Positions 37,775 through 40,971 of a DNA stretch of 47,211 nt are shown in pieces. Every line of letters begins with the position of its first letter. Position 1 is the stretch's first letter. The notes beneath the pieces were generated by a model. The model was given only the letters and a program-made list of their open reading frames with translations. It was not told the origin of the DNA and made no database searches. A program made the position numbers and the translations under genes. Origin of the DNA: a virus; the IMG/VR virus record IMGVR_UViG_3300045988_030428; one strand, 5' to 3'.

Positions 37775-38283
37775 AGTTCTTCCTCCACATACCGCCAGCT
37801 CTGCGGCGGGCGGGTGATGGGCACCGGTTCTGCTCCGAATTTTGTCTCCCGCAGGCCGGTAAACGCCCACAGATCGCGCGGGTGATCGTAAATTCTTAGG
37901 TTGGAAATATGCCAGCCGTATAATCCATGTGCGCCGTTTGCATACTTTCGAATCTCATTGGCAGATAGGCAAGTATGCAGGATGTCTTCTTCGCTCAGCC
38001 AAAAAAGACTATTCGCAAAAAGATTTGTCACACGGTAGCAGTTAAAATCCCCTATGACTTTACCGTTTCCACATTTATCAAACATATTGTGGCTATGGTC
38101 ATCCACATAGGAATATCGTGGCCCTGTCCAAAACTGTTCTTTCGAATCCTTCGTGCAATAGATGTAGACCTTAAATGGTCCATCTAACTGAGGACGCCTT
38201 TTGCGCACCTCGATAGTTTTCTGCCCGTTTATGATCTTCTCACACCACTCCGGGCGAATGCTGATCAAAACAGCTTTACTCAT
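37762..38283 (-). CDS. ASCH (PUA-like) domain protein
   Basis: MSKAVLISIRPEWCEKIINGQKTIEVRKRRP is the ASCH N-terminal signature. Confidence 0.7.
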   Translation of the reverse strand: MSKAVLISIRPEWCEKIINGQKTIEVRKRRPQLDGPFKVYIYCTKDSKEQFWTGPRYSYVDDHSHNMFDKCGNGKVIGDFNCYRVTNLFANSLFWLSEEDILHTCLSANEIRKYANGAHGLYGWHISNLRIYDHPRDLWAFTGLRETKFGAEPVPITRPPQSWRYVEEELWND

Positions 38284-38803
38284 GCTTGCCTCCTTCCTCC
38301 GGCGCTCCCGGCGATTCTAGCTTCATAAAGCAGCCCCAAAATGTTTTTGCCTTTTTTCCGCTTCTGTGCCCGAACAGTGGCTTCTCTCCGATTGCTTCCC
38401 ACACTTTTTTTGCCTCAATCTGCACCTCCGACCACTTGAAGATCAAAACCCCATCCGGTTTCAAAACACGCATACACTCGCGAAACCCATCATGCAGCAT
38501 CTGCGGCCAGTTGTCGCTTAGCACACCGTATTTCTTCCGCATCCACGAGTTTTCACCTGCACGCTCCAAATGTGGAGGATCGAAGATCACAAGCGTGAAT
38601 GTATCATCTGCGAACGGAAGATCCGTGAAGTCACATTGTATATCAGGGGCTATCACACATTTCCGTTCAGAATCATTCTTCGTGCTTTTCCAGATTCCAG
38701 TGTATGATTCGCGCCTGCTATCGCAATACACTGCGGCCGGATGCGCCTTGTCGAACCAGATCGTGCGGGAACCGCACGTAACATCAAGAATTTTCTTTTC
38801 CAT
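38276..38803 (-). CDS. DNA methyltransferase (N6-adenine/N4-cytosine type, DPPH motif)
   Basis: ILDVTCGS is the SAM motif. LVIFDPPHL is motif IV (DPP[YH]). 175 aa. Confidence 0.6.
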   Translation of the reverse strand: MEKKILDVTCGSRTIWFDKAHPAAVYCDSRRESYTGIWKSTKNDSERKCVIAPDIQCDFTDLPFADDTFTLVIFDPPHLERAGENSWMRKKYGVLSDNWPQMLHDGFRECMRVLKPDGVLIFKWSEVQIEAKKVWEAIGEKPLFGHRSGKKAKTFWGCFMKLESPGAPEEGGKHE

Positions 38804-39179
38804 TGTGTGCCTCCTGCGCTTCCGGCAGCGGCATCCAGTGGGTGACTATACTGCCAAGGCAGTCCCGCATAGCTATTCCGTCATATCTTCTCCATGTATC
38901 CGCGCTTGTGCGGTACGCCTCGCCGACAAATACGCCGTCCGTAGCAAGGACGCGTTTTCCCGGTTCCGGACTCCGTTCCTCCACGCTGATCCACTGCGGC
39001 ACCTTCTCCCGCAGCGCCGCGTTCTCGGTGGTCAGGCGCTCGATCACGTTAGCAGCTGCAAACTCGATGTATTCCCGCCGATCTTGGATTCCTCCGACCT
39101 TGCAGTTTTCGCACGCGTCGTCGTGTCCAAGCCCCTTCGCGCAGCACCGCAGTGCCTGTATAATTTCCTTGTCTGTCAT
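38784..39179 (-). CDS. DUF551-domain protein
   Basis: WISVEERSPEPGKRVLATDG...VTHWMPLPEAQE matches the DUF551 pattern. Confidence 0.6.
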   Translation of the reverse strand: MTDKEIIQALRCCAKGLGHDDACENCKVGGIQDRREYIEFAAANVIERLTTENAALREKVPQWISVEERSPEPGKRVLATDGVFVGEAYRTSADTWRRYDGIAMRDCLGSIVTHWMPLPEAQEAHNGKENS

Positions 39180-40045
39180 ATATCCTCCATTCCTTCAAGA
39201 ACCATTTGTCCCGGCAGCACGCCGTCCTCCAGACTCCAGTGCAGGACGTCTTCGCCGGTCTGCCAATCGCACGGCAGGCCGCGGCTGCGGCGCTCCTCGA
39301 TCATCCGGCCATAAGCCCGGATGTAGGCATCCCGGTATCCGGGGTAGCGCGCGAGCTGCACCTTCCGGTGCTTGCCCGCCATCGGGCAATTGATGCAGCC
39401 CACGCGATCTTCGCCGCAGGCGTAAAGCGGATTCATACAGATCTTTTCTGCTGCGCAGTAATCCCAGATGGATTCGGTCGGCCAATCGATAATCGGATTG
39501 ACCGTTCGGGTCCCCTTGAGCTGGCAATTTTCTATCAGCATCCGGCTTTCGTCATTGTCGTTCATCAGTGTCAGCCGCTTGGATTTATCCCTGTGCAGGG
39601 CCTCCATAACGCCACGGGATTTGCGCTTTTGCGATTCCTCCCAGCGGACGCCGGTCGCGATCCACCTGCCACGTCCGCTGGTCTCTTTGAGCGCCGCGCA
39701 GCAGTAGCGCATAATGCGTGTCGGCGGCACCAGCTTCAGCGGGATTAGTCGCCACATGGTCATGTACGTCCCATCCGGCTGCTTGTGCTTATCGATATCG
39801 CACGGTACGCCCGCCAACTCCAGCCTTCGGAATGTTCCCCGCACATGCCAGACGGTCTCCGGCGCATCAGCTGTCGTCAGCGAGTGCAGCACCTCATACG
39901 GGATTCCTGCCGCGCCCGCCAGATGCAGCAGCACGTCAGAGTCCTTCCCCCCGGAATACGTGACCACCAGCGGCTGCTTGTAGAGCCGTAAGCTCATATC
40001 CGAGGCCATCCGCAGCCGCTCAATCGCGGTTTGTTCTAAGTCCAT
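39176..40045 (-). CDS. PAPS reductase-like PP-loop ATPase family protein
   Basis: [16 protein letters not shown] is the PP-loop SGGKDS motif. 289 aa with a Cys-rich C-half ([12 protein letters not shown]). Confidence 0.75.
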
Positions 40046-40971
40046 CTGTCCATCTCCTCCATCAATGCCTTAAAAATCGGGTATGCCTGCTGCGGCACTA
40101 CAGCGTTTCCGAGGCATTTAAGTCTGTCCACCCTGGCGGGAATCCCATGAGCCACTCTACCCACATCGGGTTCAGTTGCCCAGCAACGTCCGTCCGCAAG
40201 CTCCTGTGATTGTCCCCACCGTGCGTCCCCTGCGCATCCGCTGCACATGGCGTCGTAAACAGTTTCATTGCCACTCTCTGCGTCAGATTGCATTTCCCCG
40301 GATCTTTTTTCCTGCTCGGCGGCACAGATTTCAGCGTGTCTTTGTATTCGTTCGCGCGCGGCGTCGGCCATAGCCTCACCGCTGACGGCAAGTCCAGGCT
40401 GTGTCGGCTGCCTGCTTTCTGCTGCGTGCTCCGCATCCGCTCCTTTCCGTAGTCCATCCTCGTCGGCGTCGGCCACATCTGCGATTCCGACGAAGAATAC
40501 TCTTGATCGTCTGTGCCAAGCTCCGACAGCCGCAGCCTCAAAATTAAACACGACGACGTGATAGCCAGCACGCTCCAGATCCTTTGCCACCTGCCCGGCG
40601 GCAATCTTGATGATTCCAGATACGTTTTCACCGACAACGCAACGCGGGCGCAGCTCGGTGATAACTCGGAGCATCTCCGGCCAGAGGTATCGATCATCCC
40701 CTTTGCCCTTTTGCTTTCCAGCCACGGAGAAGGGCTGGCATGGGAATCCGCCGGAAATAACGTCAACTGTTCGTAGGCCTGTCCGCTCATAAAAACTCTC
40801 CTTTGTCAGCGTCCGGACATCACGCCAGCGCGGCACGTCCGGCCAGTGCTTTTCCAGCACCTTCGTCGGGTAGTCGGCAAACTCACACTGCCCGACGGTC
40901 GTAAATCCTGCCCACTCGGCAGCTAAATCCAGCCCGCCGATCCCGGTAAACAGGCTCAGATGCGTCAGCAT
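40036..40971 (-). CDS. dcm: DNA (cytosine-5)-methyltransferase; its central region looks out of frame (see finding)
   Basis: Motif [37 protein letters not shown] and X LGNAVVPQ are all in this frame. The 120 codons between VIII and X read as acidic/Ala-rich low complexity. Confidence 0.7.
40098..40790 (-). other. Alternative (+1) frame ORF inside dcm, encoding a TRD-like WPTP repeat segment and an EWLMGFPxGW motif
   Basis: 230 codons. From 40478 it reads [11 protein letters not shown]...[12 protein letters not shown]...[12 protein letters not shown]...[20 protein letters not shown]. Confidence 0.45.

Follow-up and report, generated by a model that had tools for sequence, protein, structure and literature searches.

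The C5 cytosine methyltransferase gene on the minus strand of the IMG/VR virus record IMGVR_UViG_3300045988_030428 (here the window, the whole stretch of 47,211 nt that was analysed) raises the question of how an enzyme could be built when its catalytic motifs are read in one frame and its target-recognition (TRD) segment in another. A sequence-only reading of this DNA had put the two catalytic flanks in one frame and the target-recognition segment between them in the +1 frame, and had left three explanations standing: two indel errors in the assembly, a compensated double frameshift leaving a TRD-less enzyme, and genuine recoding or dual coding. The sequence itself, its homologues and the pattern of substitutions agree with that placement of the segment, and they also bear on the choice among the explanations.

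Two reading frames across one methyltransferase gene

The longer ORF, alpha, is read in frame A and carries motifs I, IV, VI, VIII, a pre-X element and motif X, all in that frame. Its features are:

40971..40036, minus strand: alpha ORF (frame A), 311 aa plus stop, the putative large-domain subunit of a C5-methyltransferase
40486..40971, minus strand: catalytic segment of alpha, motifs I to VIII, selected in frame A
40950-40933, minus strand: motif I, FTGIGG
40752-40726, minus strand: motif IV, GGFPCQPFS
40629-40621, minus strand: motif VI, ENV
40512-40486, minus strand: motif VIII, RRSRVFFVG
40180..40482, minus strand: linker of alpha, codons 164-264 of frame A, rich in Ala, Glu, Gly and Asp
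40113-40090, minus strand: motif X, LGNAVVPQ, in frame A

Alpha passes the thresholds of the C5-methyltransferase profiles, scoring 125 bits against PF00145 in a Pfam profile search (cut-off 22) and 113.4 bits against TIGR00675 (cut-off 100.65); it also matches phrog_363 (E=8e-81) and is annotated by JGI as 'DNA (cytosine-5)-methyltransferase 1'. Motifs I (FxGxGG), IV (PCQ), VI (ENV), VIII and X (GNAV) lie together on this polypeptide, which is open and colinear in 81 of 81 relatives, and its Pfam match ends at position 205 of the 324 in the PF00145 profile. The arrangement of a canonical monomer, with the TRD and motif IX between motifs VIII and X of the same polypeptide, is absent here, both elements being in the +1 frame (frame B), where a second ORF, beta, is found:

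40790..40098, minus strand: beta ORF (+1 frame), 230 aa plus TAG stop, wholly within the alpha gene
40803-40798, minus strand: Shine-Dalgarno sequence of beta, AAGGAG, followed by a 7-nt gap, AGTTTTT
40790-40788, minus strand: ATG start of beta; with the Shine-Dalgarno sequence (together 40788..40803) it lies within alpha codons K57-E58-S59-F60-Y61
40491..40787, minus strand: N-terminal ~100 codons of beta, overprinted on alpha motifs IV-VIII
40125..40490, minus strand: functional segment of beta, selected in frame B, with three WPTP-type repeats and motif IX
40478, 40373 and 40262, minus strand: the WPTP-type repeats MWPTP, LWPTP and LFTTP, respectively
40178-40119, minus strand: motif IX element of beta, +1 frame
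40119..40179, minus strand: double-element stretch of ~60 nt, holding beta motif IX and the alpha pre-X element (40179-40120)
40100-40098, minus strand: TAG stop of beta, inside alpha motif X

The frame A motifs, the ORF lengths of 311 and 230 codons, and the WPTP-type repeats and motif-IX-like element of the +1 frame had all been pointed out in the sequence-only reading and were confirmed, as were the coordinates it gave. It had described the frame A middle as acidic/Ala-rich low complexity, and codons 166-264 are indeed rich in Ala, Glu, Gly and Asp.

The beta ORF matches phrog_1008 'DNA methyltransferase' with E=5e-24; with a threshold of E<=1e-3 it has 3867 matches among database proteins, and its 130-aa functional part matches 10031 cluster representatives at the same threshold. 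There is no model for beta in Pfam or NCBIfam, and a PDB sequence search with the functional part returned zero matches at E<=10. The earlier proposal was to be abandoned if homologous methyltransferases aligned colinearly with frame A and the +1 translation had no significant hits: the homologues are indeed colinear with frame A, as the two-frame layout is common to them all, but significant matches to the +1 translation number in the thousands. AlphaFold2 gave a pLDDT of 33.5 for beta with a 38-sequence alignment and of 34.6 for a conceptual A-B-A fusion without an alignment, values too low to count for or against any account of the locus.

Near the distal junction the two frames appear to encode a canonical element each. 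In single-frame relatives (P0185 and others) motif IX and the pre-X element occur in tandem, ~25 aa apart, and the frame A reading of 40179-40120 matches the canonical element before motif X of these relatives in our family alignment A2. Diversity is low (0.04-0.10) at all three codon positions of 40119..40179. The identity of motif IX in beta is drawn from the same alignment and from a sub-threshold match to motif IX of DRM: a profile of the single-frame IX-preX-X region had its best PDB match in the tobacco DRM methyltransferase 4onj at E=0.32, which is below significance, though the alignment is sensible over motifs IX and X. When the DNA of pre-X was compared with that of motif IX as a possible frame-shifted duplicate, nucleotide identity at five loci was 0.37-0.47, the 95th percentile of the null being 0.40-0.44. 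The repair by 'one extra A' in the AAA run, which the sequence-only reading had put forward to join the frames, is arithmetically right; it is biologically unnecessary, because frame A there matches the canonical pre-X element and is not off-frame noise.

Selection, open frames and start signals across the relatives

The two-frame layout is common to 80 viral contigs from many samples and to ~30 loci in Clostridia genomes, including the complete genome of Oscillibacter valericigenes. It is also seen in cultured phages and prophages of Paenibacillus, Lacticaseibacillus and E. coli and in Sanger-era phage genomes: examples are Paenibacillus phage Shelly, where gp55 is accompanied by gp56, annotated as 'g55 internal gene', Lacticaseibacillus phage R9.1 and the E. 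coli PT62 prophage. When the gene was compared by blastn with complete E. coli genomes, a single 77-nt stretch matched, within the methyltransferase gene of a prophage. The layout is retained where alpha identity has fallen to 42% and in hosts of different phyla, and most gene callers annotate alpha only.

Among the relatives the most variable codon position is the frame A wobble over alpha codons 1-190 and again from about codon 281, and the frame B wobble (B3) over beta codons ~101-220. Frame A has a dN/dS of 0.10 and frame B one of 1.71 in the upstream overlap (beta codons 2-98), whereas in the middle segment the values are 0.47 for frame B and 1.07 for frame A; within groups that share the same TRD the differences are split 26/24/50% over B1/B2/B3. 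These patterns show that selection switches from frame A to frame B and back to frame A at the points named in the sequence-only reading.

Each frame is also kept open where the other one is selected. Over the middle, frame A has no stop codon in 72 of 72 unique sequences, with ~2.5 expected (median null probability of an open frame 0.04), and over the upstream 99 codons frame B likewise has none in 72 of 72 unique relatives, with ~2.1 expected (median 0.039); these per-sequence values come from relatives that share ancestry and are not simply multipliable. For the stop-free N-terminal stretch of beta in the window itself the null probability is 0.0075. Both frames are open in 14 divergent Clostridia loci with alpha identities of 42-61%, the combined P values being 1e-14 and 2e-14. 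Among control ORFs of the window, the +1 frame is stop-free in only 2% of 100-codon windows and the -1 frame in 9% of 120-codon windows. Thus, the amino-acid sequence of the alpha linker is unconstrained, yet its reading frame is kept open.

The synonymous sites of alpha carry a further signal, as 36 of 96 are invariant under the beta overlap versus 2 of 65 in the alpha-only parts (Fisher P=1e-7); in the divergent loci wobble identity is 0.58 in the overlap versus 0.42-0.45 in the alpha-only parts. The ATG start of beta is identical in 80 of 81 relatives, and the arrangement AAGGAGAG-N5-ATG is found in nearly all of them. All three alpha wobble positions that form the Shine-Dalgarno sequence and ATG of beta (in AAG, GAG and TAT) are invariant across 75 sequences, against a background of only 1 invariant wobble position out of 51 in alpha codons 1-55. 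The first ~100 residues of beta have no classical signal of purifying selection in their own frame, as the upstream dN/dS indicates, and the only traces of constraint on this part are the avoided stop codons and the frozen wobble positions of alpha, traces that could also come from an RNA-level or translational constraint.

Alternative accounts of the two frames

Two 1-nt indel errors in sequencing or assembly could generate such a structure, and junction 2 does lie at a short AAA run (40117-40119). The probability of such an artefact is practically negligible: the frame structure is identical in 80 viral contigs, ~30 genome assemblies, and Sanger-era and cultured phage genomes, and the assembly errors suggested in the sequence-only reading are rejected because these independent contigs, genome loci and cultured phages share it. 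It is very improbable, too, that alpha alone matters, as a TRD-less or decaying methyltransferase that arose by a compensated double frameshift and left the +1 ORF as a relic. Alpha is the longest ORF, lies above the Pfam and TIGRFAM thresholds and is the sole product annotated by most gene callers; against this, selection on frame B is purifying, in the clade as in the same-TRD subgroups, while the frame A middle is neutral, and the layout persists to 42% alpha identity and across host phyla. The TRD-less enzyme of the sequence-only reading falls with it, because purifying selection acts in situ on the +1 frame (dN/dS 0.47, versus 1.07 for frame A).

Programmed frameshifting would have to act twice, with a +1 shift after motif VIII and a -1 shift at CTTAAAT before motif X, to yield one canonical polypeptide. 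The conceptual A-B-A fusion does hold all canonical elements in canonical order, the A to B to A substitution pattern fits this account as well as it fits two subunits, and there is a loose likeness to a -1 slippery heptamer in C_TTA_AAT at 40117-40123. However, junction 1 is variable in sequence and length, with neither a conserved shift site nor a frame A stop, the TTAAAT of junction 2 is replaced by TTAAGT in part of the relatives, and the end of beta is very different in the distant ones. Frameshifting also leaves unexplained why the frame A middle is open to motif X in 81 of 81 relatives, why frame B is open for ~100 codons upstream (72 of 72), why a conserved Shine-Dalgarno sequence and ATG head frame B, and why alpha wobbles are frozen in the overlap. 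We found no precedent for two opposite shifts in one gene, and no DNA methyltransferase is listed in the part of a 2016 recoding review that was covered. Taken together we judge frameshifting quite improbable, and of the 'genuine recoding or dual coding' of the sequence-only reading it is dual coding that finds support, recoding having no conserved slippery site behind it. An account nearer to our own retains two subunits and has beta start internally near the A/B junction, the upstream +1 ORF being untranslated and open for other reasons. The first ~100 codons of beta do lack a frame B-type substitution pattern, and internal Met codons of the M.EcoHK31I beta chain can initiate, its first ~42 residues being dispensable in vitro (PMC2836561). 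Nevertheless, this account is unlikely, as the upstream ATG and AAGGAG are conserved with invariant wobble positions, and upstream frame B is stop-free in all relatives, the distant ones included. The Met of MWPTP (40478) was considered as the start and is ruled out because it is missing in 14 or more relatives (14 sequences read SLRPTPNT); no good Shine-Dalgarno sequence precedes MWPTP.

A proposed two-subunit enzyme and its counterparts

The locus is probably an overlapping-gene, two-subunit phage C5 cytosine methyltransferase, whose expression and activity we infer by comparison of sequences. The sequences themselves show the two ORFs and their upkeep, frame-specific selection, the conserved start signals of beta and the wide conservation of the layout; that both polypeptides are made and needed for methylation is supported indirectly, by the two open ORFs and the conserved Shine-Dalgarno sequence and ATG. 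Ribosomes starting at the ATG at 40971 would produce alpha, in which motifs I-VIII are followed by a drifting acidic, Ala-rich linker of ~100 residues and then by the pre-X element and motif X, parts that would jointly constitute the AdoMet-binding, catalytic large domain. Initiation at the internal AAGGAG-N7-ATG (40790) would instead produce beta in the +1 frame, with an overprinted N-terminal part of ~100 residues that may serve association, followed by the WPTP-repeat target-recognition region and motif IX. This functional segment of beta is the proposed small (TRD) domain, which would recognise DNA. Alpha and beta would associate into the active enzyme, as the chains of M.EcoHK31I do, and the product would methylate cytosines of phage DNA as an orphan, self-protective methyltransferase of the early/replication module. 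The boundary between the large and small domains of C5-methyltransferases was established from structures of M.HhaI, and the alpha/beta split falls at this boundary.

The alpha chain of M.EcoHK31I is reportedly 309 aa long (in the 1995 work of Lee, Kam & Shaw), a size similar to the 311 aa in the window. That enzyme, from E. coli HK31 and specific for YGGCCR, is a heterodimeric C5-methyltransferase whose beta chain is read from a different frame within the alpha gene; alpha carries motifs I-VIII and X, beta carries motif IX, both chains are required, the N-terminus of beta contributes to association, and the TRD has been described, as a prediction, on alpha (PMC2836561, PMC3404938). By this description the window shares with it the nesting of beta within alpha in another frame, the partition of motifs I-VIII and X from motif IX, and a non-catalytic N-terminal part of beta. 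Unlike M.EcoHK31I, the window has its whole TRD-like WPTP region in beta, with an unconstrained linker in the alpha interval between VIII and X, and its motif IX is superimposed on the alpha pre-X element; it is also a putative phage-borne orphan methyltransferase outside any R-M system.

In M.AquI, alpha carries motifs I-VIII with a portion of the variable region and beta the remainder with motifs IX-X (PMC3404938). Like it, the window has a natural C5-methyltransferase split into two polypeptides within the variable region; unlike it, motif X is on alpha and the genes are nested over the whole 693 nt of the beta ORF. An AquI-like partition is seen in relatives P0185, P0175 and P0206, where TRD, motif IX, pre-X and motif X share one +1-frame ORF. 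Separately made fragments of M.HhaI, M.BspRI, M.BsuRI and M.SssI can also assemble into active enzyme (PMC3404938), but in contrast to these artificial fragments the split in the window is natural, conserved and encoded by overprinting. The A-B-A layout recurs in the methyltransferase of Paenibacillus larvae phages such as Shelly (gp55/gp56, KP296795), with a homologous beta that is 36-37% identical to the functional part in the window; motif IX and pre-X are not superimposed in Shelly. Beta of Paenibacillus larvae phages is annotated either as 'g55 internal gene' or as a second 'DNA cytosine methyltransferase', and we found no published interpretation of it. As far as the literature was covered, which is incompletely, it held nothing beyond M.EcoHK31I on widespread overlapping alpha/beta methyltransferases of phages or on frameshifting in DNA methyltransferases.

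The two-frame layout known from M.EcoHK31I appears to be common in phages, where it has largely escaped notice. In bacteria and phages, long overlaps between genes of the same strand with two functional products are seldom met and difficult to prove; in the present case an overlap of 230 codons is supported by frame-specific selection, two-frame stop avoidance and start signals, in elements with hosts from Clostridia to E. coli. Annotation pipelines call alpha or beta and almost never both, and with no Pfam or NCBIfam model for beta, thousands of beta proteins are therefore labelled hypothetical. The alpha-only annotations probably describe an enzyme unable to recognise DNA alone, and predicting the specificity of phage orphan methyltransferases, for anti-restriction or for methylome-based host linking, would require the beta frame. 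Tools for targeted methylation can usefully be built on naturally split methyltransferases, as was done with M.EcoHK31I, and this family offers many TRD variants.

The balance tips slightly toward a broader proposal, namely that C5-methyltransferases of phages and prophages include a very large superfamily, so far uncurated, that is heterodimeric by overprinting, with TRD and motif IX forming a separate +1-frame protein. If so, abundant 'hypothetical protein' families, for instance those that begin with MSWLFSQAL... or contain ..FPAKTS.., would be beta subunits, and their conserved N-terminal motifs would correspond to motifs I and IV read in the +1 frame. One sampled case would then be M.EcoHK31I, whose assignment of the TRD to alpha may need revisiting. 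In such a superfamily selection in one frame could exchange TRD modules, and all that the other frame would have to do is thread an arbitrary linker to motif X.

Overlapping frames and their distribution

The two overlapping ORFs and the genes downstream of them are:
40971..40036, minus strand: alpha ORF (frame A), 311 aa, with C5-methyltransferase motifs including LGNAVVPQ
40790..40098, minus strand: beta ORF (+1 frame), 230 aa, with MWPTP, LWPTP and LFTTP and the motif IX element
39176-40045, minus strand: PAPS-reductase-like gene, 289 aa (phrog_424, E=1e-35), its start overlapping the end of alpha by 10 nt
38276-38803, minus strand: second, unrelated DNA methyltransferase, 175 aa (phrog_954, E=2.5e-67)

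Re-reading the sequence recovered, at the same coordinates in frame A and the +1 frame, every motif that the sequence-only reading had placed there. In profile searches alpha scores above threshold against Pfam PF00145 (125 bits) and TIGR00675, with the PF00145 match stopping at position 205 of 324. Beta has no match in Pfam or NCBIfam; it matches PHROG 1008, 'DNA methyltransferase' (E=5e-24), and 3867 database proteins, and its last 130 residues match 10031 cluster representatives at E<=1e-3. Against solved structures, the similarity of motif IX stays below threshold. The alpha gene lies in the minus-strand early/replication module, downstream of a NinB/Orf-like protein and a replication initiator, and shares an operon-like block with the second methyltransferase and the PAPS-reductase-like gene. 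A check of ten neighboring genes turned up no restriction endonuclease, a context that fits a predicted orphan, self-protective phage methyltransferase.

A scan of viral contigs recovered 80 loci with 67-99% identity in frame A, each with one full-length tblastn match for frame A (residues 1-311) and one for the +1 frame (1-230). Species-representative genomes yielded 35 loci, chiefly from Oscillospiraceae and other Clostridia, including Oscillibacter valericigenes Sjm18-20, Clostridium porci, Pseudoflavonifractor and Desulfosporosinus. The layout, in which frame A bears motif X and the +1 frame, open over a long stretch, bears motif IX, is present in 29 of the 31 genome loci with a complete or nearly complete copy (one of the 29, L108, has a divergent motif IX), and in most of these 29 motif IX ends about 14 codons ahead of motif X. 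It recurs in a 'DNA cytosine methyltransferase' of an E. coli PT62 prophage, in Lacticaseibacillus phage R9.1 and in Paenibacillus larvae phages, where GenBank gives the inner ORF as an internal gene or a second methyltransferase. In Paenibacillus phage Shelly (L117, KP296795; ORFs at 621-1658 and 805-1509) annotators recorded it as 'g55 internal gene', while other P. larvae phage records name both ORFs 'DNA cytosine methyltransferase'; a 48-genome comparison lists two methyltransferase genes and does not discuss their overlap. A frame structure shared by the 80 viral loci, 29 of 31 genome loci, the E. coli prophage and these phages excludes the two assembly indels that had been entertained as its cause.

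Selection in the two frames

In codon alignments of 72-75 unique relatives variability peaks at the frame A wobble across alpha codons 1-190 and from about codon 281 onward; over codons ~196-280 it peaks at frame A position 1, which serves as the +1-frame wobble. Realigned on the +1 frame, beta codons 1-100 vary at position 2 (the alpha wobble), codons ~101-220 at position 3 and the last ~8 codons at position 2 again. Nei-Gojobori dN/dS is 0.10 in A and 1.71 in B for the upstream overlap, and 0.47 in B and 1.07 in A for the middle segment; for the beta N-terminal part the own-frame ratio carries no information, since 'synonymous' sites there coincide with alpha first codon positions. The switch of the variable position and these ratios bear out the placement of the target-recognition segment (TRD) in the +1 frame. 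Inside seven groups of close sequences, each sharing one TRD module, 26/24/50% of differences fall on +1-frame positions 1/2/3. This third-position share rules out import of the frame B signal with swapped TRD modules and, together with the middle ratio of 0.47 in B, excludes the TRD-less enzyme earlier proposed. Past the first WPTP, relatives carry diverse, modular sequence, as expected of a target-recognition region.

The ATG at 40790 starts the +1 ORF in 80 of 81 sequences. Before it stand AAGGAGAG and a further five bases, the AAGGAG-to-ATG gap being seven bases; distant relatives have a GGAGG-type site at the equivalent position. At the alpha wobble positions forming this signal (AAG, GAG, TAT) all 75 sequences agree. 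Of 96 wobble positions in the overlap (alpha codons 62-160), 36 are invariant, against one of 51 degenerate wobble positions in alpha codons 1-55 and one of 14 past the beta stop (Fisher P=1e-7 versus the alpha-only parts). Compared among divergent loci, conserved codons have a wobble identity of 0.58-0.59 within the overlap versus 0.42-0.45 outside. As alpha wobble sites are frozen across the overlap, the overprinted N-terminal part of beta appears to constrain the DNA. A beta start at the Met of MWPTP (40478) was rejected, this Met not being conserved among relatives.

FRAMESHIFTING: frame junctions and the case for two chains

If a single A-B-A chimera alone were important, stops could arise in the middle of frame A and in the upstream part of frame B; neither is seen. 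Against a null in which synonymous codons of the selected frame are shuffled, none of 72 sequences, which are kin and not independent, has a stop in the middle of frame A (2.5 expected; median P(open) 0.04) or in the upstream 99 codons of frame B (2.1 expected; median P 0.039). For the window's own sequence the null P for upstream frame B is 0.0075. At 14 divergent genome loci null P per locus is 0.000-0.098 for frame A and 0.000-0.142 for frame B, with Fisher-combined values of 1e-14 and 2e-14 over sequences that are again related, not independent. Among the window's long ORFs, a control set including some probable non-genes, the +1 frame is free of stops in 2% of 100-codon windows, and the -1 frame in 9% of those of 120 codons. 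Judging from these comparisons, both ORFs are maintained.

Double frameshifting to a single product is unlikely, as the relatives compared show no conserved shift motif at junction 1 (after motif VIII), where sequence and length vary, frame A has no stop past this junction, and the part consulted of a major recoding review lists no DNA methyltransferase case. Junction 2 (before motif X) reads GAC TTA AAT in most relatives and TTA AGT in some, but distant relatives differ. Of the 'recoding or dual coding' offered by the sequence-only reading, dual coding is favored by the two open frames and the conserved beta start, while recoding is disfavored for want of a conserved shift site.

In M.HhaI, motifs I-VIII and most of X make up the large domain; the small domain is formed by the variable region and motif IX. 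By analogy, the alpha/beta partition coincides with this domain boundary: alpha would correspond to the large domain, a freely drifting linker standing where the small domain would be, and beta residues ~101-225 would be the small domain, the pair forming a predicted C5-methyltransferase encoded by overlapping genes. M.EcoHK31I is built of an alpha and a beta chain whose association is obligatory; the beta coding region lies wholly inside alpha in a different frame, and association is weaker when beta is truncated at its N-terminus (PMC2836561; PMC3404938). By sequence and published description the window gene follows the same nested-frame principle, although the published predicted TRD of M.EcoHK31I is on alpha, whereas here the TRD and motif IX are on beta. 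An overlapping-gene alpha/beta C5-methyltransferase of the M.EcoHK31I type is the best explanation and, we believe, a probable one. The layout is spread far wider than the single characterized precedent suggests. Our literature search found no description of such an overlapping family, which is weak evidence of novelty given the incomplete coverage of that search.

Distal elements and other partitions

In the E. coli PT62 prophage gene (L081; NZ_CP090448.1, 1898-2635; annotated 245-aa 'DNA cytosine methyltransferase') the +1 frame is open across the entire gene and reads MSWLFSQALAEEY...SYLAGFRARTS...LPKWGMAASG...GLWPTAKA...LNPQWVEWFMGWPIGWTELKPLAMDKFREW. Here 'MSWLFSQAL' is motif I read in +1, and 'GFRARTS' (also FPAKTS, DSHASPS) is motif IV, GGFPCQxxS, read in +1. 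Numerous database 'hypothetical proteins' presumably begin like MSWLFSQAL, and all of these may be beta-type ORFs.

In single-frame relatives (database proteins P0185, P0175, P0206, P0191, P0242 and others) LNPDWVEWLMGxPxGWT is followed ~25 residues on, in the same frame, by W..EP..PRV..G..NRVDRLK.LGN..VP; P0175 has two tandem IX-type elements. In the window motif IX (beta) and the alpha element preceding motif X (pre-X) are encoded in two frames by one ~60-nt stretch, 40119-40179; the two are separate, in tandem, at loci L092, L094, L095 and L100 and in phage Shelly. The beta 'GWT' and alpha 'RVD' codons have GGGTGGAC in common, so a deletion at this microhomology could have superimposed the elements, and in the alpha frame motif IX casts a 'shadow' (for example ESSMGRVADGIPAWMD in L100) similar to the true pre-X element (EPDIPRVASGVPNRVD). 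These features may reflect either an old frame-shifted duplication or such a deletion.

At L114 (a Gammaproteobacteria MAG) and L115 frame A homology is itself divided between two frames (for example, frame 1 covers residues 2-65 and frame 2 residues 55-303); additional frame variants or errors of assembly may account for this. In four database proteins (P0121, P0143, P0152 and P0182) the alpha N-terminus is joined in frame to beta within motif IV, just past it, or within the first TRD repeat. Sequencing indels or pseudogenes could account for these proteins; if they are real variants, they would represent natural single-indel fusions. Finally, the +1-frame ORFs of the five single-frame relatives named run on through pre-X and motif X, placing TRD, IX and X on the second ORF in a partition like that of M.AquI, which implies that the family holds several different ways of splitting the enzyme.
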